From: Candidatus Jordarchaeia archaeon
GTDB taxonomy: Archaea; Asgardarchaeota; Jordiarchaeia; Jordiarchaeales; Jordiarchaeaceae
Assembly: GCA_029856435.1 (NCBI GenBank)
Contig: JAHQXB010000068.1
Coordinates: 1 to 10,535 of the forward strand
Direction: 5' to 3'
Length of the DNA stretch: 10,535 bases
Of the stretch, positions 23-10,535 are shown piece after piece. The notes below the pieces were generated by a model. The model was given only the letters and a program-made list of their open reading frames with translations. It ran no database searches and was not told the origin of the DNA. Position 1 is the first letter of the stretch. Every line of letters begins with the position of its first letter. The position numbers were made by a program, and so were the translations under genes.

Positions 23-3000
23 TTAGTGGTCTGCTGTTTCTGTGGGTTTATTTTTTTGGGTTTCTTTTTTCTTTTGTTCTTGTGGGCTTTTTTCTGTTTC
101 TTCTTGTGGTTCTTGTGTTGTTTCTGTTTCTTTGGTTTTTTTGATTTCGATTTTTGTTTTGGCTTTTTTTTCCTCTTCTTCTTCGATGGTTTGTATGATT
201 GTGGTGCTGGTTTCGCTTGGTACGCCTAGGGATTCTAGGAGTTTTTCTCGTTGGGCTGGGGATGCTTTTTGCAATTCCTTTATTAGTGTGAGTGCTTCGT
301 TTTCTGTCATTCCTAATTCTACCAGTAGTGGCACTAGGCGGTCTGCAAGGGTAACGGGCATGTATGTTTTAACTTTGGGCTCTACGTCCACGACGCTTGT
401 TTCAATGAATAGAACTTTGGATATTACGCTGTCTCGTTGGATGGGTTTTACGTTGATTTTTTGTCCCCGGTTTATGGCTAGGATGAGTTCGTCGATTCTC
501 TTTATGATGGCGGGTATCCTTGCCCTCTTTACATAGGAGTACCCAGTCATTGCGCAGACGGGTATGGCTACTGCTAATACTATTACTAGGAATATGGTGA
601 AGGGTATGCGAATATTTATGAGGGGAATTAGCACGGTTCTCTCTTTGACCTGCAGGAGGAAGAATGACTGCTGCGACTCGTAGAGATTTGCACTTGCACT
701 TATCACTATGGGATAAGCTGAGGGAGCAAGGCCATATGTGGGAATAATTACTGCATAGTTACCGTTTCCCAGTGAAATTAGGGGCCATCCACCAGCGGAC
801 ACTGTGGCGTTAGGGATTGGTGACCCTCCACTGTCCACAAACTTGAAGAGGAATATGGCGGGAAAAACTATGCCGTTTTCGGTCTGCCCATAATTGCCCA
901 GGAAAAATACTGCGGGGTTATTTAAAGACGAGAGATACGAGGTGGAAGGGGACAAAACGGTGGGGATACCCTGAATAACTAGTTGAATCACCTTCGATGA
1001 ACTCGAGTAATTCTCCTTTGTGGAGGAAACTTCTATAATATAGTTTCCTGGCGGCATAGTCTGTGATGAGAGATATAGCTGGGTATAGTATGTGCCATTG
1101 CTTGCATCAGTGAGAAAACCACTAACTATTTGGGTGCCGGCGCTGGTCCAAACTGAGTAACTGACGGTTGCTCCAGTTACAAGTTCGTTGTTGTGGGTGT
1201 CGTTTAGTTGAACGCTGACTAGTAGGTACTCATTTACCGGGCTGGAAAGGAGGTTTTCGCCCTTTACCTCGACGGGGATTTCCATGATGTGAAGAGGAAT
1301 AAAGTCGACCAGTATTTCATAGTTGGGACTTTGGGCGGCTACCCTAAAAACATAAATTCCAGGTCTAAGCAATGTAGAGTCAAAACTTCCAGTCCAATTG
1401 CCGCTTCCAGAGGATATTAGGCTGCCGGAAACATCTTGCCGCCAAACGAAGTAGCTAACCGTTCCGGTGTAAATGGGAGTTCCATCAACTCTGTCTCTAT
1501 ATAGTACTGAGACTGGCAAAACGTCTCCATAGTAGCCCTCCACTATGGAGGAAATTAGCAATTCAGCTTGTGCCGGAGTAATCATCAACTGAGTATCAAC
1601 TGTATAAGTTGTATAGTTAGTGCTTGAAACAGTGATTCTCAAACCATAAGTAGCAGCCAGCAAATAAGCTTCAACGTCACCCGCAGGAATAGTGTAAGTG
1701 TAATTTCCGGGGGGAGAAGAATGAAGCAACTGTCCCGAAACAGATGTGCCAGTTATGGAAAAACTCACATTTGCATTAGTAACTGGAACACCAGACTCCG
1801 TATTAGTAACGTTGACCCACAGGGGAATGTCTGAGTGTTTCCAGTAATAGGTGCCAGAAAGCGAAGTGGCAGTTACACTAAAGGTCGCTGGCTGGACGAA
1901 CACAACTGTCTGGTTAGCCGCAGGTAAATAGTTGGTGGAGGGAGCTGAAGCATTAACGTAAATCTGGTACGTCACACCTCCGTAAAGTAGTGATGAAGGA
2001 ATATTTGCAATGTAGTGTATATTTGAGCTTGAAACCTGCGGTTCTAGGGTTTCAGGACCATACGCTAGTGTTCCGTTAATGTAGTACAGTGTCCAGTTCA
2101 GTGAACCTCCAACTACAGTTGTACTGAGGTTATTTTCACTTTGGTCTCGCCACCAGAGTGTAAGACTAACATTTGTTCCCCAAGTAACATTAAAGGAAGT
2201 TGTCGTGTTAAAAATTATATATGTGAATATATTGCTGCCGATGGGCTCCTCAAAGTACAATGGGGAATCTGACCGGCTATCGATGGAGATATTTAGGTAG
2301 GATGTTTCAAACTGTGTACCGTCATAGTAGAAAGCCTTGATACTGTAGTTTCCGATAACGCTTGACCTTTTTATGTGAAACTCGGCCCAGCCTGTTAAGT
2401 TAACAGGGCTTGAGTCAACCAACGCGCCTGTGGAGTTTAAAGTCAAATTAATGTACGCGTTTTGTATCGGCCGATCACCCGTATACTTTGTTTGGCACCA
2501 TAACGTGGTAATCTCACTAAATACTAAATTAATTATATCATTTGAAGTAATCGTACTAATGGTAGAGTTAGTGTAAAATTCGTAGCTTGTATTTCCGCTC
2601 CAAGTAGCATTGAAACTGTATTCTCTAGGCTCAAGATAGAATCTTGCGTAACCAGTGGAATTAGTAACTTTGCTATCCACATAAGTTGAACCACTATATA
2701 CTGTCACATTCGCATTTGCTAATTCGGCTCCGTCGTAGTCTGTTACATAAACATACACTGTGTAGTGGATGTATTCCTCGTCCACAATTGTAATGATTAG
2801 GGGTGCGCCTTCCCTGCCTAGGAAACTTATGCCGTCAGCAAAGGATTCAAAAGAGGAAAGGTTTCCCCCAACGTAAAAAGCGTATTTCTCATTTATATAG
2901 TGGCCAATTGTCAAGTTGACCGCCCAAGCCCTCTTCCACTCTTCTGGCGTGTAGCTTGTACCTCTCGTTATATAGTCCCAGCTTCTGCTATCAACACCAT

Positions 3001-4213
3001 TAATAGTGGGTAACATTAGATCCACAACACCAGCCAATTGACCATTGCTGGTAGAGTACAAAGCAAACCAGGAAGGTTCTCCCAAAAACTCCTCGCTAAT
3101 GAAGGGATCAAAGGTAGTTTTTGTAACTCCATACTTATAGGTCAAAGTAGTCAGCTGAGGATCAAATCTATAATTGTTGCCAACATAGTGTCCCAACTCC
3201 AGTATGCGTTTCCATCCACCTGGAAGATCGTATTCTACCCCAAAAACGAAATTGTAGGTAATGTTTATTTTAGTTTCAGTTATCCATCCCCAATTAAAGA
3301 ATCTGTAGGTGACATTGGCATAACCTGCTTCGTTTGGAGCGCCATTCCCTCCACTGGTTAGGGTTAGTTTGGTCAGTGTAGAGAACATTATGAAAAGGGG
3401 CCCTGCTTCTAATATTGAGGTGCTTTCAGCAGAGTGTCCTAAACCGGAACTATCGTATATCCATGTATCATACTTAACCTTGTTGCCCTTCTTTACAATG
3501 ACATCAATGTAGTATTGTGGACTCCAATGGAACTCATTGTCATAAGCCCAAGAGTTCCATGAACCTGTAGCATTGTTATATGAAAGGCATATTTTGCCTC
3601 CATTAGTTGAACTGTTAACTATTGCATAATAATTCTGTCCGGAGAAGTTCCAAACTCCACCACTCGGATTAGTATAACTTACTTCTGGAGTAAAATTGGG
3701 TGCAGAACCCGAATCATTATCATAGTATATGAAGTATGAAGCTACACTATTGGCAGACACGTTAACGTAAAAGGTAATTGTAAAACTGCTATAATGGTTT
3801 GCATCATAATCCGTGACATTCCAAATTTGGTACGGGATTCCGTCAGAAGTGCCTGGAAACCAAGTTCTACTGGTGCTGTTCCAGTACTGTACCCTCACTG
3901 TACCGTGGTGACAATGATCACCGGGGAATGTTATGAAAATGTCTACTGGTCGATTGACAATGGGAAATGGGCTAGCGGTGTTGTTGAAGATGACTTCCTG
4001 TCTGTACCTGTAACTGGTGTCCCACCACGAGGGGTAGTCTTCGCCTGTGGGATCGGCTTTGATTCCTATCGTTGGATGACTGTTGGAAGAGGCAGGTGTT
4101 GCGGGTACGAATGAGACGGGAGGGATGACTGTTACCATTAGGAATATTGAAATTAGGAAGATGGTTGATAGTATGAGGATTTTTTTTCTTCTATCCATGA
4201 AGTTTTTCCTCAC
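23..4213 (-). CDS. Large membrane-anchored cell-surface glycoprotein: N-terminal signal/anchor, DUF2341-like domain, multiple Ig-like beta-sandwich repeats, C-terminal TM helix and ~168-aa cytoplasmic tail
   Basis: 1396-aa open frame. Basic then hydrophobic N-terminus (RRKK-ILILSTIFLISIFLMVTV). DUF2341-like segment WWDTSYRYRQEVIF...ITFYVNVSANSVASYFIYYDN (~3715-4027). Recurrent units such as VTDYDGAELANANVTV, VTNTESGVPVTNANVSF, LNDTHNNELVTGATVSY, FVDSGGSPIPNATVS. Many N-x-S/T sequons. TM helix IPFTIFLVIVLAVAIPVCAMTGYSYV (aa ~1203-1228, nt 530-607), then KRAR and an E/K/T/Q-rich end. The track start at 4213 is GTG; ATG at 4198, preceded by GTGAGG, is at least as likely. Confidence 0.85.
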   Translation of the reverse strand: MRKNFMDRRKKILILSTIFLISIFLMVTVIPPVSFVPATPASSNSHPTIGIKADPTGEDYPSWWDTSYRYRQEVIFNNTASPFPIVNRPVDIFITFPGDHCHHGTVRVQYWNSTSRTWFPGTSDGIPYQIWNVTDYDANHYSSFTITFYVNVSANSVASYFIYYDNDSGSAPNFTPEVSYTNPSGGVWNFSGQNYYAIVNSSTNGGKICLSYNNATGSWNSWAYDNEFHWSPQYYIDVIVKKGNKVKYDTWIYDSSGLGHSAESTSILEAGPLFIMFSTLTKLTLTSGGNGAPNEAGYANVTYRFFNWGWITETKINITYNFVFGVEYDLPGGWKRILELGHYVGNNYRFDPQLTTLTYKYGVTKTTFDPFISEEFLGEPSWFALYSTSNGQLAGVVDLMLPTINGVDSRSWDYITRGTSYTPEEWKRAWAVNLTIGHYINEKYAFYVGGNLSSFESFADGISFLGREGAPLIITIVDEEYIHYTVYVYVTDYDGAELANANVTVYSGSTYVDSKVTNSTGYARFYLEPREYSFNATWSGNTSYEFYTNSTISTITSNDIINLVFSEITTLWCQTKYTGDRPIQNAYINLTLNSTGALVDSSPVNLTGWAEFHIKRSSVIGNYSIKAFYYDGTQFETSYLNISIDSRSDSPLYFEEPIGSNIFTYIIFNTTTSFNVTWGTNVSLTLWWRDQSENNLSTTVVGGSLNWTLYYINGTLAYGPETLEPQVSSSNIHYIANIPSSLLYGGVTYQIYVNASAPSTNYLPAANQTVVFVQPATFSVTATSLSGTYYWKHSDIPLWVNVTNTESGVPVTNANVSFSITGTSVSGQLLHSSPPGNYTYTIPAGDVEAYLLAATYGLRITVSSTNYTTYTVDTQLMITPAQAELLISSIVEGYYGDVLPVSVLYRDRVDGTPIYTGTVSYFVWRQDVSGSLISSGSGNWTGSFDSTLLRPGIYVFRVAAQSPNYEILVDFIPLHIMEIPVEVKGENLLSSPVNEYLLVSVQLNDTHNNELVTGATVSYSVWTSAGTQIVSGFLTDASNGTYYTQLYLSSQTMPPGNYIIEVSSTKENYSSSSKVIQLVIQGIPTVLSPSTSYLSSLNNPAVFFLGNYGQTENGIVFPAIFLFKFVDSGGSPIPNATVSAGGWPLISLGNGNYAVIIPTYGLAPSAYPIVISASANLYESQQSFFLLQVKERTVLIPLINIRIPFTIFLVIVLAVAIPVCAMTGYSYVKRARIPAIIKRIDELILAINRGQKINVKPIQRDSVISKVLFIETSVVDVEPKVKTYMPVTLADRLVPLLVELGMTENEALTLIKELQKASPAQREKLLESLGVPSETSTTIIQTIEEEEEKKAKTKIEIKKTKETETTQEPQEETEKSPQEQKKKETQKNKPTETADH

Positions 4214-4342
4214 TTATAGAAATTTTTTAAAGATTTGTTGAATTTTCTACGCTTTCCCTTGTTTCTCGTTGAGGATTTCTCAAATTTTTCGTAATTTTTT
4301 GAATTATTGACATTCTTATATATTTATTAGTGATGAGCTTCA

Positions 4343-4357
4343 TATTTATACCTTTTC
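4343..4357 (-). promoter_or_regulatory. Putative archaeal BRE + TATA box for the surface protein gene
   Basis: Minus strand reads GAAAAGG-TATAAATA, a purine-rich BRE directly followed by a near-consensus TATA box, 130-145 nt upstream of the start. A second TATA-like TATATAAG lies at 4315-4322. Confidence 0.55.
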
Positions 4358-4651
4358 AGTTATGAGAGGAGGATTTTCTGAATAAGTAATTTTTCAAAAT
4401 TTTGGGGTGAAACCAATTTTTATTCATTTCTTAAGTTTGAAGGATTAAAAACCAATTCAGCTGATAAAAACGGTTCCTCCCATTACTCCTTTTGGTACTA
4501 GTTTCTCCAGCTGTTTCTGCATGGATCTTTATAAGTTTGAATACCTTTTTTCAGGAGTGAATATGTTATTTAAATGTGACTCATTTTTGCGCGGCAACGT
4601 AAGATGTAAGGTTTTTAACTTGAGACGGCTTTTTCATTTTTGTGGTATAGT

Positions 4652-4923
4652 TTGGTATATAAGGCGAAAATTTCAAGCAAGGGTAAAATAGTGATTCCCA
4701 AAGAGATTAGGGAAAAGTATGGATATCGGAAAGACGTGGAAGTCCCCCTCAAACCTATAGATGAAACTAAATTATTGATCGAAAGGTCTCCCAGACTTGA
4801 ACTCTTCGGCTCTCTTGGGGAGGCTAAAGGTGCTGAAACTCTGTTCTAGGAACGGGAAAAGAGTTAAATTCGGAGGTTGAAAAGGAGGGGGCGCAAGAAC
4901 TCTCACGGCGGGAAGCAGGGTGA
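4652..4923 (+). pseudogene. AbrB/MazE/SpoVT-family antitoxin, probably disrupted at its C-terminus
   Basis: VYKAKISSKGKIVIPKEIREKYG matches the AbrB N-terminal signature (S-x-K-G-[Q]-I-x-I-P-x-x-x-R). Likely start is TTG 4652 (track uses 4640). The frame stops at TAG 4847-4849. Reading through it and adding one A to the run at 4857-4860 gives EREKELNSEVEKEGAQELSRREAG*, whose TGA (4921-4923) overlaps the next GTG start (GTGA coupling). Confidence 0.7.
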
Positions 4924-5101
4924 AGCGCCTCATATTTGATGATGGTCCTTTTCTGGTGATATTCACTGATGAAAAAGCAACGGAAGCTAGAGAAGCCATA
5001 TTAAAGCATGAGGGGGCGAATTAGAAATTTTCATACATCCCTACAATCTCGCTGAAGCCTACAAGTTGACATTCTTCACGACTGAAGTTCAATGTCATTA
5101 A
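4920..5101 (+). pseudogene. vapC: PIN-domain (VapC-type) toxin remnant, frameshifted and truncated; not in the ORF track
   Basis: GTG 4920 opens MKRLIFDDGPFLVIFTDEKATEAREAILKHEG, with the first PIN Asp after a hydrophobic strand. One extra G in the G5 run (5012-5016) continues GELEIFIHPYNLAEAYK, resembling the PIN N-L-A-E motif with the second acidic residue. PIN similarity ends near 5065 and this frame stops at 5099-5101, so the C-terminal half is missing. Confidence 0.7.
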
Positions 5102-5262
5102 GTTAAGGAGGGGGGTTATGTGGTATTGATCGATTCCGTCCAAAAAAGGGCCTTTCAATGGGGCGTTTTACTCCAGTTAGAACCCGGAAATGGTGGAAGA
5201 ATCAGGCGAAGCCGCACAACTACAGGAAGACAATAAAAGAATCCGGGCTTAATGACATTGGA

Positions 5263-6195
5263 CTAAAAGTCGTTGGCTTTCTCGCCAACAGCTTTGTAAC
5301 CTCTGGAGGTCTCTTCCACGATGCCTTTTGCTACTAGTCTTTCTAGTTGTTTTTGCATAGATATTCTTTCCATGAGTTTGAATGCTTCAACTGGTTCTGG
5401 AAATTTTCTGTATATGATTGCTTGGTTGACGATTTCTTCGAGTGTGTGCTCTTCTTTAAGGAAGTTTAACAATTTTTCCTCTCTCTGATAGATTATGTTT
5501 TGGTACCAGTTGAGTTTGCTTTTTATCAGGTCTTCTCCTCTGAAAATTTCTCCTTTATGGCTTGTGACTGCTATTTCAAGCTTTAATTTTTTTAGTTTCT
5601 CTATGGATGTGATGAAGTCGTCCACGTTGCAGTCTAATGCCCCGTACCATGGTCCGAAGGAGGTTAAATCTATGTCTGCCAGGAAGATGAGTTTCTCTTC
5701 GGGTATTAGGAAGCAGCAGTGGCCGTAGGAATGTCCCGGGGTGTGAATGACCTGCAACCTGTTTTTTCCTAGGTCGAAGACGTATCCGTCCTCGAATTCC
5801 AAGTCTACTCTCCCGTCTCGAAGATGCAGAACATCGTTTAGGATGTAGTCCATGAATGCCTCTGCGCCTGAACCCTTAAGACCGTATATTTCTTTCAACC
5901 GGTTAAGGTCTCTTATGGCTGGGGCGTCCAGTTTGTGGGCGCAAATCTTTCCCTCCTCAAAGTAACGGTTGCAGGCCACGTGGTCCTCGTGGCCGTGGGA
6001 ATTGATGACCAGGTCTACACTGTAGGTTTTGGCGGTTTTTTCGGCTAAGCTGGGTTCGAAGCCAGCATCTATTAGTGCAGTTAATTCGTCTTTTATGAGG
6101 AGGGAGTTAGCGTAGGGGTACTTTCCCTTGTTTTCTGCCTGAATGAAAATAATATTTTCGGTTAGGGGAACGTAGGGCAAGTCCATCGCCTTCAT
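5263..6195 (-). CDS. Metallo-beta-lactamase-fold hydrolase with a probable C-terminal winged-helix domain
   Basis: Motifs LIDAG, SHGHEDH (HxHxDH), HTPGHSYGH, FLADID and VTSH. The C-terminal TLEEIVN...MQKQLERLVAKGIVEETSRGY looks like a wHTH. Substrate cannot be determined. Confidence 0.88.
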   Translation of the reverse strand: MKAMDLPYVPLTENIIFIQAENKGKYPYANSLLIKDELTALIDAGFEPSLAEKTAKTYSVDLVINSHGHEDHVACNRYFEEGKICAHKLDAPAIRDLNRLKEIYGLKGSGAEAFMDYILNDVLHLRDGRVDLEFEDGYVFDLGKNRLQVIHTPGHSYGHCCFLIPEEKLIFLADIDLTSFGPWYGALDCNVDDFITSIEKLKKLKLEIAVTSHKGEIFRGEDLIKSKLNWYQNIIYQREEKLLNFLKEEHTLEEIVNQAIIYRKFPEPVEAFKLMERISMQKQLERLVAKGIVEETSRGYKAVGEKANDF

Positions 6196-6225
6196 TTATA
6201 GAGGCTTTGGTTTTCTGGAATTAGG

Positions 6226-6240
6226 TATTAAAACTTAATA
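6226..6240 (-). promoter_or_regulatory. TATA-like element within a small inverted repeat upstream of the MBL gene
   Basis: Minus strand TTTTAATA at 6233-6226, ~30 nt before ATG 6195 with no SD, which fits a near-leaderless transcript. It is embedded in TATTAA-aac-TTAATA. The arms are AT-only, so support is weak. Confidence 0.3.
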
Positions 6241-6406
6241 AATGATACGCTCACAAGGATGACGGTTTTCAATTAGTTTGATGCGAAAAACATTTCTATG
6301 ATTTGTATTGGGAAGTCAGTTTATGTATTTTTTAAGGGGGTTTTTATGAAATAGTTCTAAACGGGTCATGTTGAGAGGCGTGTTGAACCCAGAAATGGTT
6401 TGAGGC

Positions 6407-7315
6407 TTAGGTGTAGTCCACAACTGATCTTTGATTTTTCACTTTTTCTTGGAGGTGGGTTCGTAGTCTTTTTGCGTCTGGGCGCTCAATTATTTCTACT
6501 TTACCTGTTGAGTTGGTCAATGTGGCTTGGTTGTAATTTATCTTTTTTAATATGACATCTTTTAGTTCGAGGTCTATTTCGTAGCCCACGCTGTTTCTTT
6601 CCAATTCTTTTGCTACTTTTGTTGTGGTTCCTGAGCCTAAAAATGGGTCTAGAACTGTTTCTTCCACAAATGTGAACAGTTTTATCAGGCGTCTGGGTAT
6701 TTCTTCGGGGAAGGCGGCTATGCCCTTTTCCAGCCTATTTTCGAGGGGGAGAACGTTTGTGATTCTCCAGATTGCGAGATACCATTTTTCTGAGCTATAT
6801 TTCTTCAAGTCTATTTTTGAAGCTTCTAAGATTTTTGGGTCAAGGGTTTTAATGTAGGCGTAATCAAATTTGCCTTTTTGGAAAATTATGATGCTTTCTT
6901 GTATGTTGTCTGGATAGAAGTACATGGGGTATGGATGTTGCAGTACTACTCCGCTGCGTCTGCTAATTCTAATGTATCCTTCAGGCTTTTCCCAAACAAT
7001 TCGGTCTCTATACCGAAAGCCGGTTTCAATCATAATTCTGGTAATGTCTGAAACAACAGGGTATTTTTCACCCTTAACAAGCATGTCATCTGTAACGAAG
7101 GCTGCAATCCTTCCTGGTGCCAAGACTCTGTAAAGCTCTTTTGCAAAGGCTCTAATCAACTCGAGAAACTCTTCGTAGCTCTTGTAAAGGTCGGGATAGT
7201 CAAAGGGGGCATTGTAGTAGGGCGGAGACGTAACAACCAGGTGAATGGATTCATCTGGAATTTCATACATGTCTCTGCAATTTCCAAAGATAATTTTGTG
7301 CCATGTGGACATCAT
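6407..7315 (-). CDS. Site-specific DNA amino-methyltransferase, beta class (N6_N4_Mtase family), most likely m4C
   Basis: Motif IV VVTSPPY near the N-terminus and motif I VLDPFLGSGTT near the C-terminus (beta order). Also GYEID, WxIxNV and AAFPEEIPRRLIKLFT. SPPY is typical of N4-cytosine MTases but does not exclude m6A. Frame intact, 302 aa. Confidence 0.93.
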   Translation of the reverse strand: MMSTWHKIIFGNCRDMYEIPDESIHLVVTSPPYYNAPFDYPDLYKSYEEFLELIRAFAKELYRVLAPGRIAAFVTDDMLVKGEKYPVVSDITRIMIETGFRYRDRIVWEKPEGYIRISRRSGVVLQHPYPMYFYPDNIQESIIIFQKGKFDYAYIKTLDPKILEASKIDLKKYSSEKWYLAIWRITNVLPLENRLEKGIAAFPEEIPRRLIKLFTFVEETVLDPFLGSGTTTKVAKELERNSVGYEIDLELKDVILKKINYNQATLTNSTGKVEIIERPDAKRLRTHLQEKVKNQRSVVDYT

Positions 7316-7470
7316 TCTTTTACACCCAATTTTTTAGCGTATTCTTCAATCGCAGCATGAATAGCGTCAGTCTTCAGCACCCTAGCAGGAGTATTTGTAT
7401 TCTTGCGTAAGGCTTCAACTATTTTGTCAAGCAAATCCTTGGTTTTTTCTGAAACATATATCATGGGCAT
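7312..7470 (-). CDS. Small ribbon-helix-helix-like DNA-binding protein (52 aa), not in the ORF track
   Basis: MPMIYVSEKTKDLLDKIVEALRKNTNTPARVLKTDAIHAAIEEYAKKLGVKE*. A short N-terminal strand (MIYVS) is followed by two amphipathic helices. SD-like GAGGGATGA lies at 7482-7474. The stop TGA (7314-7312) overlaps both MTase ATGs (ATGATG). It fills the gap between two same-strand genes. Confidence 0.75.
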   Translation of the reverse strand: MPMIYVSEKTKDLLDKIVEALRKNTNTPARVLKTDAIHAAIEEYAKKLGVKE

Positions 7471-7483
7471 AGTTCATCCCTCT

Positions 7484-7513
7484 ACATATAATATGTGGTA
7501 ATAGTATTTAATA
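7484..7513 (-). promoter_or_regulatory. Putative internal promoter (TATA-like) plus palindromic operator upstream of the RHH-MTase pair
   Basis: Minus-strand TATTAAATA at 7513-7505. Inverted repeat ACATAT-A-ATATGT with perfect 6-bp arms at 7484-7496, between that box and the SD. Confidence 0.4.
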
Positions 7514-7523
7514 TTATCTAATA

Positions 7524-8321
7524 TCAGTATGCCCGCCAAGTCAAATTCCTTTCACAAAAATCTTGAAGCATACAGTAACCTTTACAGCCAATTTTGGACT
7601 TAATCTGACAAACAGGAGACCTAGGGCAGGAATCACATGCTATACCTTCCAGATTGTCGGAGCAACAATTGATACCTAACTGAAACGCACCATGATCAAC
7701 CATAATGCAGTCATCACTATAATTATTTGTCACCTCTTGAATTGTTGGTCTCATTTTGGAGGCTACTATAACGTTCCATCGACCTCCACTTCCCTTCTTG
7801 GCCTCATGAATTACTTCAGAAACAAGACCCGTCCTGGAAAAAATCTTGCCCACATGACCATCAACAGGCATTTCGAAAAGCGCCTTATCCCACCTGCCGT
7901 AAGACACATCTATTCCTAAATCGGGGTGGCCTATCCAAGAAACGTACATCCTCACCGCCTTTTCTCTAAGAATTGATTCAACGAGGGGGTTCCCCTGCAA
8001 AAATGAGGCCGCTTCTTTGGGAGTCCTAAACTGTGCCAACCTATCAGAAAGTTTATCCCTGTTTAGCATCATCTCATAGATTAAAAAACCTCCAACCCTA
8101 AGAACAAACCAGCCGAAGCGAGGCAAAACTCTACCTATCGCGGGAGAAATTTTATAATCATCCTTTAATGCCACTAATTTATTTATATTTATGAGACATT
8201 GTTGAGGCTTATAGAACAAGGCGTCCCCAAACAGGTTATAGATTCGTATTGCGGTTTTTCTTGCGGAAGGGGATTCAGCCTGTTGATCGAGAAAAGCCAC
8301 CAACAACAAAAATCTCGTCAA
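7524..8321 (-). CDS. Divergent endonuclease III / HhH-GPD superfamily DNA glycosylase-like protein with Cys-rich (Fe-S-like) C-terminus; main body of a probably frameshifted gene
   Basis: By-eye match to Nth. FLLLVAFLDQQAESPSARKTAIRIYNLF resembles FELLVAVILSAQxTDxxVNKAxxxLF. SILREKAVRMY has K121 at the HhH Lys position. MPVDGHVGKIFSRTG (D154) resembles VDTHVxRVxxRLG. LGINCCSDNLEGIACDSCPRSPVC resembles the Fe-S loop (C-x8-C-x2-C-x5-C versus canonical C-x6-C-x2-C-x5-C). The TTG start at 8321 is probably internal. Confidence 0.7.
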   Translation of the reverse strand: MTRFLLLVAFLDQQAESPSARKTAIRIYNLFGDALFYKPQQCLININKLVALKDDYKISPAIGRVLPRFGWFVLRVGGFLIYEMMLNRDKLSDRLAQFRTPKEAASFLQGNPLVESILREKAVRMYVSWIGHPDLGIDVSYGRWDKALFEMPVDGHVGKIFSRTGLVSEVIHEAKKGSGGRWNVIVASKMRPTIQEVTNNYSDDCIMVDHGAFQLGINCCSDNLEGIACDSCPRSPVCQIKSKIGCKGYCMLQDFCERNLTWRAY

Positions 8322-8485
8322 TTCTTCCTTATATCTAAAACCATCTCCTTTGGCAACTCGTTAATTATCTGAGCAAGCTCTAGGGGCTGGAGAATGCCTC
8401 CGACACGCCCAAGGATGCTGACAATCTGCTCTTTCTTAGAAGGCTCAGCCTCTCTTCCCACATGCGATTTAACCAAATTAATCAC
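8318..8485 (-). CDS. 55-aa ORF, probably the N-terminal part of the glycosylase-like gene (or a translationally coupled small protein); not in the ORF track
   Basis: GTG 8485: MINLVKSHVGREAEPSKKEQIVSILGRVGGILQPLELAQIINELPKEMVLDIRKN*. The glycosylase frame is open upstream of its TTG back to TAA 8363-8361 (RVAKGDGFRYKEEL). One added A in CCAAAG (~8349-8351) would fuse the two into ~320 aa (...NELPKGDGFRYKEELTRFLLL...). Confidence 0.55.
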   Translation of the reverse strand: MINLVKSHVGREAEPSKKEQIVSILGRVGGILQPLELAQIINELPKEMVLDIRKN

Positions 8486-8763
8486 ACTACACTCTACTAT
8501 TCCTGTAAAAATCCTAATTATTATTTTTCAGTTAATCAATTTTCTAAATAAACAAGGAATGAGTTCCTTAGAAATTTTGCTCTTCCAATTAATAAAAAAA
8601 TATGCAGATTCATTTTAAAATACTATGGGCATTGTTAAATTTCTGAACCATAGTCTGCTTTTACCTGTGACTCCACCCACTCAGTAAAGAAGCCTTACTC
8701 CGCAACCAGAATGAAACTATAAAAATATAGTTACTGTTGGTCTACTTTCTTGAGTAGATTAGA

Positions 8764-8770
8764 TTTATAA
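8764..8770 (+). promoter_or_regulatory. TATA-like box upstream of the SAM methyltransferase gene
   Basis: TTTATAA ~55 nt before ATG 8824, with SD-like GAGGAAGA at 8813-8820. Confidence 0.35.
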
Positions 8771-8823
8771 GATTGTTAAAGTTTTTATGTGATTCAGTTA
8801 GGCCCCATCTTTGAGGAAGACAT

Positions 8824-9612
8824 ATGTTTGAAAAACTACCTGATAAAAAACAGGTCATAGAATATGACGATGCAGGTGTTATTCCCCTCTACTATTATCC
8901 TGATACGGATTACCTTTTTAAGATGATGGGGGTTAGAACCATCGAGATGGCTCTCTTGGAAAAAAAGGATTTGGCAATGGATGTGGGGTGTGGAATAGGC
9001 AAAGAAGCAGTTATGATGGCGGAAAGAGGGGCAAGAGTGGTAGGACTTGACCCCTCCAAGATTATGGTTAAGAAGGCGAGGGACTGGGTGAATTCCTGCA
9101 AGCAGGAGGTGAGCATAGTGAGGGGGGCTGGTGAATGTCTACCTTTCAGAGACAATGCATTTGACGTCGTTACCTGTAAGGGCGCAATGGACCACTTTGC
9201 AAGCCCCCGAGCAACATTAAGAGATTTTTCAAGAGTCCTCAAACCAGAGGGGAGGGCGGTGGTTTCTCTGGCAAATTTTGAGAGTTTAGGCTTCAAAATG
9301 GCGCGAAGGATACATGCCATAAGAAGAAAACTTAAGCTTGTGGGCGATGGACCAACTCCCTGGGATGTTCCAAAGGACCACACGGTGAGGTTTGACTACC
9401 TCGTTTTAAAAGCATATATGGACGGAGTCCTGAAGAGAAGCGGAATGATAGGACACTCCATGTTTTGGAACTTGCATCGTTGGGGAAGGATCCTAAACGC
9501 TCTCCCCAAAAGGGTCTCCTGGACCATAATGCAGTTCTTGGACGAAATCGCAAAACTTTTCCCGATGCTGGGAGACATAATAATTGCTCGAGGAACACCC
9601 ATAAAAACATGA
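8824..9612 (+). CDS. Class I SAM-dependent methyltransferase (Methyltransf_11/UbiE-like fold), small-molecule substrate unknown
   Basis: Motif I MDVGCGIG, motif II VVGLDPS, GAGECLPFRDNAFDVV and post-II RVLKPEGRAVVS. No DNA-MTase [DNS]PP[YF] motif. Confidence 0.9.
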   Translation: MFEKLPDKKQVIEYDDAGVIPLYYYPDTDYLFKMMGVRTIEMALLEKKDLAMDVGCGIGKEAVMMAERGARVVGLDPSKIMVKKARDWVNSCKQEVSIVRGAGECLPFRDNAFDVVTCKGAMDHFASPRATLRDFSRVLKPEGRAVVSLANFESLGFKMARRIHAIRRKLKLVGDGPTPWDVPKDHTVRFDYLVLKAYMDGVLKRSGMIGHSMFWNLHRWGRILNALPKRVSWTIMQFLDEIAKLFPMLGDIIIARGTPIKT

Positions 9613-9834
9613 GCAAAAAAGGGGAATCAGCCTAAAAAAGGTAATCCTCCCGTCAAAATAATTTTTCTAAAATTTGGCCGATTAAAGTTTAACAGCGCAT
9701 TTTTATCAGTTTTTGAGAAAAGGGGAACATTTTTAATTTTTAAATCATAAAAGGAATGAAAAGATCGTTTTAGAGACAACTTTCCTGTAGTTACTGGTTT
9801 TAAGCCTTTCATGCAAAGAAGTGGAGGAGACTGT

Positions 9835-10174
9835 TTGCCTTTCAAGGTGGGTTTAGCGCAGAAGCGCAAGCAGTTAATAGAGGAGGAATTAAAAAGAGTT
9901 ATACCCAAGATTGTTGAGTTAGACGTTGAGAAAATCATAGTTTTTGGTTCTTTAGCAACTAATAAGGTTCACAGGTCAAGCGACTTAGACATCCTCATCA
10001 TAAAGAGGGCCGGCAAAAAATTTCTCGATAGGCTGGAAGAATTCTACCAGCCTTTAAAACCCAGCTTGGCAATGAATATATTTGTACACGCCTGAAGAAT
10101 TTGAGGATATGAAGCTGACCAATCAATTTATAAAATCCGCCCTGAAAAATGGAGAGGTTATATATGAAAAATAG
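9835..10174 (+). pseudogene. Minimal nucleotidyltransferase (MNT) antitoxin, frameshifted
   Basis: IIVFGSLATNKVHRSSDLDILII is the GS-x10-DxD signature. Likely start is TTG 9835 after GGAGG 9823-9827. The frame stops at 10093-10095, but the frame shifted at ~10084-10087 (2 nt missing) continues YTPEEFEDMKLTNQFIKSALKNGEVIYEK* to TAG 10172-10174, the typical MNT C-terminus. Confidence 0.85.
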
Positions 10175-10451
10175 AACATTGGAAGCGAAGAGGTGGTTTT
10201 CATAGGCAATCCAAGATTTGGGCGACGCAAGGTTCAACCATTCAGGGAAAAGGTATAATGTGGCCTGTTTTCTAGCACAGCAATCTGAAGAAAAAGCTTT
10301 AAAGGCATACCTTTTTATGAAGGACGCTGAAGAGGTGTGGGGACGCTACGCTGCAGAACTATGCAAAGATGCGAAAAATTTCGACCCAAAATTTAGCACA
10401 ATAAAATCAAACGCCGTAATCAACAGTTCCAAAATATATAGGCTTATATAG
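10164..10451 (+). pseudogene. HEPN-domain protein (MNT partner) with premature stop and lost C-terminus
   Basis: ATG 10164 overlaps the MNT end: MKNRTLEAKRWFS*AIQDLGDARF...YNVACFLAQQSEEKALKAYL...VWGRYAAELC. The in-frame TAG 10203-10205 sits where Gln is usual (W-x-x-Q-A-x-x-D-L). The usual WGH reads WGR, and no C-terminal YIPTRY-like motif appears before the stop at 10451. Confidence 0.85.
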
Positions 10452-10535
10452 GCGTTAGTTTATTGTTTATGTGTACCTGAAGATGGAGGGAGTTCCCCAC
10501 GAGAGAGGATTGTGGGACAAAAACATCCTCCCGAC

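Follow-up and report, generated by a model that had tools for sequence, protein, structure and literature searches.

Analysis of a 10,535-nucleotide stretch of DNA (hereafter, the window) from Candidatus Jordarchaeia archaeon (GCA_029856435.1, contig JAHQXB010000068.1) revealed a small mobile gene cassette in which a DNA methyltransferase (MTase) is paired with a divergent relative of the repair enzyme endonuclease III that sits where a restriction enzyme normally sits. The latter therefore probably restricts foreign DNA by cutting out a base, a role not yet reported for this protein fold in the papers searched, which name only the unrelated PabI fold as a restriction glycosylase. The copy in this genome, however, is broken by a 2-bp duplication.

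Organization of the cassette and a frameshift in the glycosylase-like gene

The cassette lies on the minus strand and consists of a glycosylase-like gene (7524-8485), a gene for a 52-aa ribbon-helix-helix (RHH)-like protein (7312-7470) and a beta-class SPPY amino-MTase gene (6407-7315, 302 aa). A gap of 53 bp (7471-7523) separates the glycosylase-like stop from the RHH start, while the RHH and MTase genes overlap by 4 bp (ATGA) and are translationally coupled. The MTase gene is intact, and its product carries VTSPPYY near its N-terminus and DPFLGSGTT near its C-terminus. It matched PF01555 at 1.5e-42 and the PADLOC MTase_II model PDLC03353 at 8.3e-73, and its best solved relative was 2zie. The enzyme probably produces N4-methylcytosine, although comparison with solved or plasmid MTases, to which it is only 30-35% identical, did not reveal its specificity. 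None of the three proteins matched a nuclease family in Pfam, NCBIfam or PADLOC.

The glycosylase-like gene appears as two open reading frames, 8485..8318 (55 aa) and 8321..7524 (265 aa), which are two pieces of one gene, as full-length homologs are 316-319 aa and read straight through. The 5' piece (8318..8485) encodes the N-terminal ~50 residues and gave a profile match to positions 1-51; its likely true start is the TTG at 8476, which matches MVKSHVG of intact homologs. The 3' piece (7524..8330) holds the HhH-GPD core with the Lys (EKA), the Asp (PVDGH) and the Cys-rich cluster loop. DNA alignment with three intact relatives (loci L001, L002 and L008) showed that the break is not a one-base change but a 2-bp AT duplication at 8331-8334, reading GATATAAGG here against GATAAGG in the intact relatives. 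An independent Logan contig of the probable source sample was identical over 7837-8700 at depth 59, indicating that the duplication is real, although minority intact alleles cannot be excluded from contigs alone. Programmed frameshifting was rejected, since broken copies elsewhere are broken at different places and intact relatives read through. Therefore, only the repressor-methyltransferase half is probably active in this genome.

We next compared the noncoding regions across loci. Upstream of the glycosylase-like gene is an AT-rich, TATA-like motif (8505..8530, minus strand), inferred to be a promoter. In relatives it is the conserved near-palindrome CAAACCATAATTATGGTTT, and sequence conservation between loci stops just upstream of it, marking the left edge of the cassette. 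The 53-bp spacer (7471..7523, minus strand) contains a conserved TATA-like box and repeat (GATA.TATTAAATACTATTAC AACATA) and is probably, by inference, the promoter/operator of the RHH-MTase operon. The exact palindrome ACATATAATATGT (7484-7496) is specific to this window; it is not conserved in relatives and is not above chance in the window. The 52-aa protein is a probable repressor of the RHH-MTase operon, but its assignment is weak: it matched RHH_1 only at E 0.014, below the cut-off, one relative matched 56B_RHH at 0.006, and the monomer model showed an extended N-terminus plus two helices at a pLDDT of only 64.

Predicted fold and conserved residues of the glycosylase-like protein

Sequence searches against solved structures gave nothing meaningful with either the single protein or the family profile. 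An AF2 model of the intact homolog P0002, which is 89% identical, had a pLDDT of 89. Plain Foldseek E-values for the model were weak (0.014 or worse), and the fold assignment rests instead on VIA-align and hhalign. VIA-align gave Z 15.2 with an rmsd of 3.2 A over 220 residues to D. radiodurans EndoIII-3 (4uob), and Z 14.2 over 208 of 211 residues of E. coli EndoIII (2abk). In all, 128 chains scored Z>=8, with ROS1 among the matches (Z 13.1). The window protein and P0002 had no PF00730 match, but three of 21 family members matched this model at E<=1 (best 9.1e-8), of which only P0117 exceeded the curated cut-off (32.9 bits against 26.2). An hhalign comparison of the family alignment with the canonical Nth (L013) was not significant. 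However, a wider alignment compared with a canonical HhH-GPD protein of the same genome (L014) was significant (Prob 86%, E 5e-6), and placed the family's Lys on the HhH Lys, its Asp on the VDTH Asp and its Cys on the cluster loop.

Specifically, K172 of P0002 aligns with the Lys of GVGPKTA and is invariant in 18 sequences down to 20% identity. The Asp of MPVDGH aligns with that of LPVDTH and is kept in most members, although a few have Asn in its place. The four-Cys cluster loop reads C-x8-C-x2-C-x5-C in short forms, while long forms have an 18-residue Cys-rich insert before the last Cys. In contrast, the HhH hairpin is degenerate, reading ESILREK without the usual Gly residues, even though the two helices are still predicted (H163-168 and H171-182). 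The protein is not the housekeeping enzyme, as it had no NCBIfam match, the genome has two canonical HhH-GPD genes elsewhere, and the gene is present in only 5 of 400 Asgard genomes.

We also investigated the likely oligomeric state. A symmetric homodimer was predicted with a score of 0.76 against a best control of 0.01, a mark that was reached by 20 of 30 proteins solved as pairs of one chain and by 1 of 23 solved as single chains. These calibration counts hold only roughly, since our own alignment was used. The three runs agreed in at least 92% of contacts, and the partner's pLDDT was at least 90. Solved HhH-GPD glycosylases appear to be monomers, so it is unlikely that the prediction merely reflects known structures.

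Linkage to the methyltransferase and mobility of the cassette

To determine whether the gene arrangement is meaningful, we examined homologous loci. The MTase is adjacent in 73 of 73 loci with enough flank to be informative, so that the arrangement is not due to chance. With G denoting the glycosylase-like gene and M the MTase gene, the arrangements were G>RHH>M (49), G>M (17), convergent (5), and M upstream or divergent (2, plus three partial-match loci). The RHH gene is thus optional, being undetected in 17 collinear loci. A distant subfamily member, about 31% identical, is also next to this MTase, although only one distant member (L100/L121) could be placed in context. No separate restriction gene accompanies the pair in any locus.

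Several features show that the cassette is mobile. Flanks are unrelated between loci, the gene is present in 3 of 6 genomes of the genus, and a complete sister genome has two permease genes between the same flanking genes. Copies 60-89% identical occur in Jordarchaeia, Bathyarchaeia, Nitrososphaeria and a Dehalococcoides MAG, and about 30% identical ones in Thermofilaceae. Nevertheless, no relatives were found in the collections of viral contigs, plasmids or phages searched, and the cassette does not sit in recognisable defence islands. An unknown 343-aa neighbour in one genome (G117) is not related to the family.

In other Asgard genomes, MTases 60-67% identical pair instead with ordinary Type II restriction enzymes: they are followed by PADLOC REase_II PDLC03572 (4e-81, 3e-93) in two genomes, with a partial third, and by a weak PDLC03542 match in another. 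Moreover, the glycosylase-like protein diverges faster than the MTase in 81% of 1176 locus pairs, as restriction genes usually do. Glycosylase and MTase lineages are, however, partly shuffled; if the enzyme is sequence-specific, the MTase variants must then share one specificity. Six loci have a broken glycosylase-like gene and an intact MTase against two of the reverse, a difference too small to be significant. The two lineages with a broken MTase beside an open glycosylase-like frame (L039=L090, and L094) count against a restriction role, since a toxic restriction enzyme should not tolerate this, although the L039 protein carries the most changes at otherwise conserved positions (6 of 125).

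Discussion

We consider it more likely than not, though far from certain, that this is a mobile Type II-like restriction-modification (R-M) cassette whose restriction component is a [4Fe-4S] HhH-GPD (endonuclease III-fold) enzyme rather than a phosphodiesterase. In the mechanism that we infer, the ~316-aa protein would bind a specific, probably palindromic, site as a symmetric homodimer, flip out an unmethylated base and excise it using the conserved Asp; through the invariant Lys it would form a Schiff base and nick the strand by beta-elimination, as bifunctional Nth, OGG and ROS1 enzymes do. The linked MTase (probably m4C) would methylate the same site and block excision on host DNA, and the RHH-like protein, where present, would repress the RHH-MTase operon from the conserved spacer. 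No recognition sequence could be inferred. In this genome, the duplication cuts off the N-terminal helix, and what remains is most likely an orphan MTase with its regulator. The first-pass annotation, which had placed an Nth-like glycosylase in the restriction slot, is supported: both computational tests that it proposed, of fold and of linkage, came out in its favour, and the pairing of close MTase relatives with ordinary restriction enzymes adds evidence that it could not have known. Its rejection of a role like that of MIG also holds. It requires correction in that the frameshift is a +2 AT duplication, the RHH gene is optional, and the restriction half is probably dead in this copy.

We weighed other roles for the protein, each of which appears unlikely. 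The least improbable is that of a methylation-coupled repair partner, in the manner of Vsr or Mig, that removes a lesion created at the target site by the MTase or its product, such as a deaminated or wrongly alkylated base. Strict linkage alone fits this as well as it fits R-M, Mig.MthI is an HhH-GPD enzyme tied to an MTase, and a harmless repair enzyme would be allowed to persist beside a broken MTase. However, no T:G product is expected from a PF01555 amino-MTase, the invariant Lys is typical of bifunctional enzymes and not of Mig or MutY, and Vsr and Mig ride with complete systems or conserved chromosomal Dcm, whereas no separate restriction gene is found here. Sporadic cross-phylum spread is hard to explain for an MTase-plus-repair pair with no selfish or defensive benefit, the same MTase clade pairs with real restriction enzymes elsewhere, and the predicted homodimer has no counterpart in repair glycosylases.

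Still less likely is a modification-directed glycosylase, acting either as a prokaryotic ROS1-like eraser of the mark written by the linked MTase or in a Type IV-like attack on modified viral DNA. ROS1 and DME are bifunctional Fe-S HhH-GPD enzymes with Lys and Asp that remove a methylated base, and Brig1 and END nucleases show that base-recognising glycosylase folds are used against modified phage DNA (PMC12191111). Modification-dependent systems, though, characteristically lack a linked MTase, and END nucleases have none (PMC12191111), while writing and erasing the same mark from one mobile cassette would be futile or self-destructive, and sister MTases have ordinary methyl-inhibited restriction enzymes in this slot. 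It is similarly doubtful that the protein is a non-catalytic specificity, targeting or regulatory subunit for the MTase, or has a role unrelated to DNA restriction. Inactive EndoIII domains do serve as DNA sensors in END nucleases (PMC12191111), and the degenerate hairpin and occasional Asn would be compatible with this. Yet the Lys is invariant, the Asp is kept in most members and the cluster Cys are kept, no effector nuclease is fused or linked, and MTases of this clade work with separate restriction enzymes and need no extra subunit. In addition, the gene is repeatedly broken while the MTase stays intact, so the MTase does not depend on it.

All restriction enzymes characterised so far are phosphodiesterases, apart from the PabI family. 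We regard it as slightly more probable than not that a second, independently evolved class of restriction glycosylases exists, built on the iron-sulfur endonuclease III fold, acting as a homodimer on unmethylated sites protected by an m4C MTase, and moving horizontally between archaeal phyla and into bacteria. If the family works as proposed, base-excision restriction has arisen at least twice, this time from the most widespread DNA-repair glycosylase fold, and the family would show how a lesion-specific enzyme can be converted to read normal sequence and methylation state. It would also add a thermophile-derived, possibly metal-ion-independent, sequence-specific glycosylase/nickase to the enzyme toolbox, and give a prokaryotic counterpart to the plant ROS1/DME enzymes for studying how HhH-GPD proteins sense methyl groups.

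The proposed logic is that of the R.PabI-family restriction glycosylases (R.PabI, R.HpyAXII, R.CcoLI) and their MTases, in which a mobile two-gene unit restricts by excising an unmethylated base and breaks the strand through AP-lyase chemistry. R.PabI-family enzymes are homodimers, as predicted here, and their genes are often found decayed (PMC10273834). The fold, however, is unrelated, being a HALFPIPE beta-sheet in PabI against an all-helical Fe-S HhH-GPD fold here; no Pfam match to a PabI-type family was found, and the partner is an SPPY, probably m4C, MTase rather than the m6A MTase of PabI. With endonuclease III and other bifunctional HhH-GPD glycosylases (OGG, ROS1/DME) the protein shares the fold, the Lys/Asp pair and the four-Cys cluster loop, but it is about 100 residues longer, with an N-terminal extension, a 15-residue insert between Lys and Asp and, in most members, the Cys-rich insert in the cluster loop. 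The window protein matches no Nth model, and the gene is accessory, patchy and MTase-linked rather than housekeeping. Mig.MthI, the thymine mismatch glycosylase of the MthTI R-M plasmid, is likewise an HhH-GPD protein (Vsr is not) encoded next to a DNA MTase on a mobile unit, but Mig and Vsr serve m5C MTases and accompany a separate restriction enzyme, and Mig has Tyr rather than Lys at the HhH position. Finally, END nucleases, in which an inactive EndoIII sensor is fused to a PLD or PD-(D/E)xK nuclease, also represent recruitment of an EndoIII-fold module to defence against foreign DNA (PMC12191111), but they have lost the catalytic residues, have no MTase and target hypermodified DNA, whereas the present family keeps the Lys and, in most members, the Asp, has no nuclease domain and is next to an MTase in every informative locus.

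Organization of the gene cassette

The region 6407-8485, which the first-pass annotation had proposed to be a candidate glycosylase-based restriction-modification (R-M) system, holds four ORFs, all on the minus strand: 8485..8318 (55 aa), 8321..7524 (265 aa), 7470..7312 (52 aa) and 7315..6407 (302 aa). The second and third ORFs are 53 bp apart, while the third and fourth overlap by ATGA. The 302-aa protein (7315..6407) is a beta-class exocyclic-amino DNA methyltransferase (MTase), which matches PF01555 at 1.5e-42, with VTSPPYY near the N-terminus and DPFLGSGTT near the C-terminus, and also matches the PADLOC Type II MTase model PDLC03353 at 8.3e-73. The 52-aa protein (7470..7312) resembles a ribbon-helix-helix (RHH) repressor only weakly: RHH_1 gives E 0.014, and the monomer model shows an extended N-terminus plus two helices at pLDDT 64. 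No protein of the cassette matched a nuclease family in Pfam, NCBIfam or PADLOC. Outside the cassette, a 1396-aa ORF at 23-4213 on the minus strand has only weak CarboxypepD_reg / Ig-like matches and is probably a large surface or secreted protein.

The glycosylase-like gene is interrupted by a frameshift

Homologs of the 265-aa ORF are 316-319 aa long and cover both upstream ORFs in one frame. Alignment with three intact relatives revealed that the window reads GATATAAGG where they read GATAAGG, which is a 2-bp AT duplication at 8331-8334. An independent Logan contig of the probable source sample is identical across 7837-8700 at depth 59. The frameshift is therefore in the DNA and is not an artefact of this assembly, although contigs cannot exclude a minority intact allele. 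The same run also holds short contigs 90-95% alike to 7487-7562 and 7786-7865, at 4 to 6 times the depth of this genome's contig, and more abundant relatives of the cassette therefore live in the same sediment. The break removes the first ~50 residues, which in the model form the long N-terminal helix, and we infer that the remaining 265-aa product is probably not functional. In this window, the restriction half is thus most likely dead, while the intact RHH-MTase operon, with its conserved and probable promoter spacer, probably persists as an orphan methyltransferase.

Predicted fold and conserved residues of the glycosylase-like protein

The window protein has no significant Pfam or NCBIfam match. 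The AF2 model of an intact homolog, P0002 (89% identical, pLDDT 89), aligns to D. radiodurans EndoIII-3 at Z 15.2 (220 residues, rmsd 3.2 A) and to E. coli endonuclease III at Z 14.2 over 208 of its 211 residues, including the C-terminal cluster loop. In all, 128 chains score Z>=8. A few family members match PF00730 directly (best 9.1e-8), but only P0117 exceeds the curated cut-off. Profile alignment to a canonical HhH-GPD protein of the same genome (Prob 86%, E 5e-6) placed the family's Lys (EKA) on the Lys of GVGPKTA, its Asp (MPVDGH) on the Asp of LPVDTH, and its Cys on the C-x6-C-x2-C-x5-C loop. The Lys is invariant down to 20% identity, while the Asp is kept in most members and is Asn in a few.

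The family nevertheless departs from Nth in several ways. It is about 100 residues longer, the HhH hairpin lacks its glycines, and 33 rather than 18 residues separate Lys and Asp. Moreover, most members carry eight Cys, because an 18-residue insert containing three extra Cys sits inside the four-Cys cluster loop (P0002 residues 270-307, window about 7554-7680); the short members P0098, P0099 and P0117 lack this insert, which could bind a second metal site. The genome has two ordinary HhH-GPD genes elsewhere, so this is an extra, divergent copy. The family is rare, in that only 95 cluster representatives reach E<=0.001 among 1.84 billion, and none is named beyond 'hypothetical' or 'endonuclease III'.

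Linkage to the methyltransferase and mobility

We next investigated the genomic context of the family, for which 12 genome loci and 80 metagenome loci were retrieved. Of 78 loci with a near-full-length gene, 73 have the MTase adjacent, and the other five end within 260 bp of the gene and are uninformative. The order glycosylase-like gene, RHH, MTase was found in 49 loci, and the glycosylase-like gene followed by the MTase with no detectable RHH in 17. The genes are convergent in 5 loci, and the MTase is upstream or divergent in 2, plus three loci with partial matches (L091, L094 and L095). A distant subfamily member, about 31% identical, also sits beside this MTase. Locus L060 holds a rearranged cassette (4573-10493), in which an intact glycosylase-like gene is separated by about 2.7 kb from RHH-MTase and a second, degraded copy of the glycosylase-like gene lies convergent on the far side of the MTase.

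Nothing else is shared between loci, and the flanks are housekeeping genes of many kinds. Sequence conservation between loci starts about 65 bp upstream of the start codon, at a conserved AT-rich near-palindrome. Hosts include Jordarchaeia, Bathyarchaeia, Nitrososphaeria, Thermofilaceae and a Dehalococcoides MAG. However, the gene is found in only 5 of 400 Asgard genomes and 3 of 6 genomes of the genus, and in 401 sampled Bathyarchaeia there is one full copy plus two remnants. A complete sister genome has two amino-acid permease genes between the same two flanking genes; specifically, between the MBL-fold and SAM-methyltransferase genes that flank the cassette here, locus L111 of sister genome G117 holds the two permease genes and a 189-aa ORF, making this a variable spot in the genus. 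Together, this is the behaviour of a horizontally moving accessory cassette. A short repeat also lies just at and beyond the 3' end of the MBL-fold gene (5060-5305). A 39-bp core (5261-5299) recurs at 13 other places in this genome, and the wider ~230-bp stretch, bounded by 17-nt inverted repeats (5086-5102 / 5248-5264), is multi-copy in sister genomes and looks like a MITE-like element.

Related methyltransferases have interchangeable partners

In the same phylum, MTases 60-67% identical to this one are followed by proteins that match the PADLOC Type II restriction-enzyme model PDLC03572 (4e-81 and 3e-93). This occurs in two genomes, with a partial third. In another genome the MTase is preceded by a weak PDLC03542 match, and in a further genome the MTase stands alone. 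One MTase clade thus has interchangeable partners, and the glycosylase-like protein is one of them. Two back-to-back R-M-like pairs were seen in locus L112 of G117 (568-4773): one is a 276-aa MTase (61% identical to that of the window) with a PADLOC REase_II, while the other is a 285-aa PF01555 MTase overlapping an unassigned 343-aa protein with no family match, possibly another unknown restriction enzyme. In genome G296, two copies of an MTase 73-74% identical to that of the window (loci L120 and L137) have no glycosylase-like or REase gene beside them and appear to be orphan MTases; in L120 the MTase gene is the only ORF of 80 aa or more within about 3 kb. The glycosylase-like protein also evolves faster than the MTase in 81% of 1176 locus pairs, as restriction genes usually do.

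The glycosylase-like protein is predicted to form a homodimer

Structure prediction with two copies of the protein gave a score of 0.76 against a best control of 0.01, a mark that was reached by 20 of 30 proteins solved as pairs of one chain and by 1 of 23 solved as single chains. Because our own alignment was used, these calibration counts hold only roughly. The three runs agreed in at least 92% of contacts, and the pLDDT of the partner was at least 90. The symmetric interface uses residues 91-136 and 162-168, which include the family's most conserved, family-specific segment. Since solved HhH-GPD glycosylases generally appear to be monomers, the result is unlikely to reflect memory of known structures, and a dimer would suit a palindromic site. 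The model supports binding but does not show it.

Possible functions of the cassette

We consider the best explanation, held with moderate confidence, to be a Type II-like R-M cassette whose R component is a methyl-inhibited, sequence-specific glycosylase/lyase. This remains a hypothesis, as no activity has been measured and no target site is known. The degenerate hairpin and the partial shuffling of glycosylase and MTase lineages also count against it. In addition, two lineages (loci L039=L090, and L094) have a broken MTase beside an open glycosylase-like frame, although the L039 protein carries the most changes at conserved positions. Broken glycosylase-like genes beside intact MTases are more frequent, occurring in the window, in loci L009, L075 and L077, in the second copy in L060, and in L100; however, six against two is not significant.

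The alternatives appeared less likely. A role as a repair partner of the MTase fits the linkage, but it does not fit the amino-MTase partner, the invariant Lys, the absence of any separate R gene, the selfish-looking spread or the partner exchange, and we regard it as unlikely. A modification-directed glycosylase is more doubtful still, since it conflicts with the obligatory MTase. A non-catalytic partner, which we rate at a similarly low level, conflicts with the kept catalytic residues and with the MTase surviving without the protein.

Comparison with known systems

END nucleases use an inactive EndoIII domain as a sensor fused to a nuclease and have no MTase (PMC12191111). Full-text literature searches found no MTase-linked HhH-GPD restriction enzyme, and reviews of 2023 and 2025 name only the PabI family, with its HALFPIPE fold, as restriction glycosylases (PMC10273834; PMC12707154). 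The concept of base-excision restriction already exists, and what would be new here is the use of this fold in that role.
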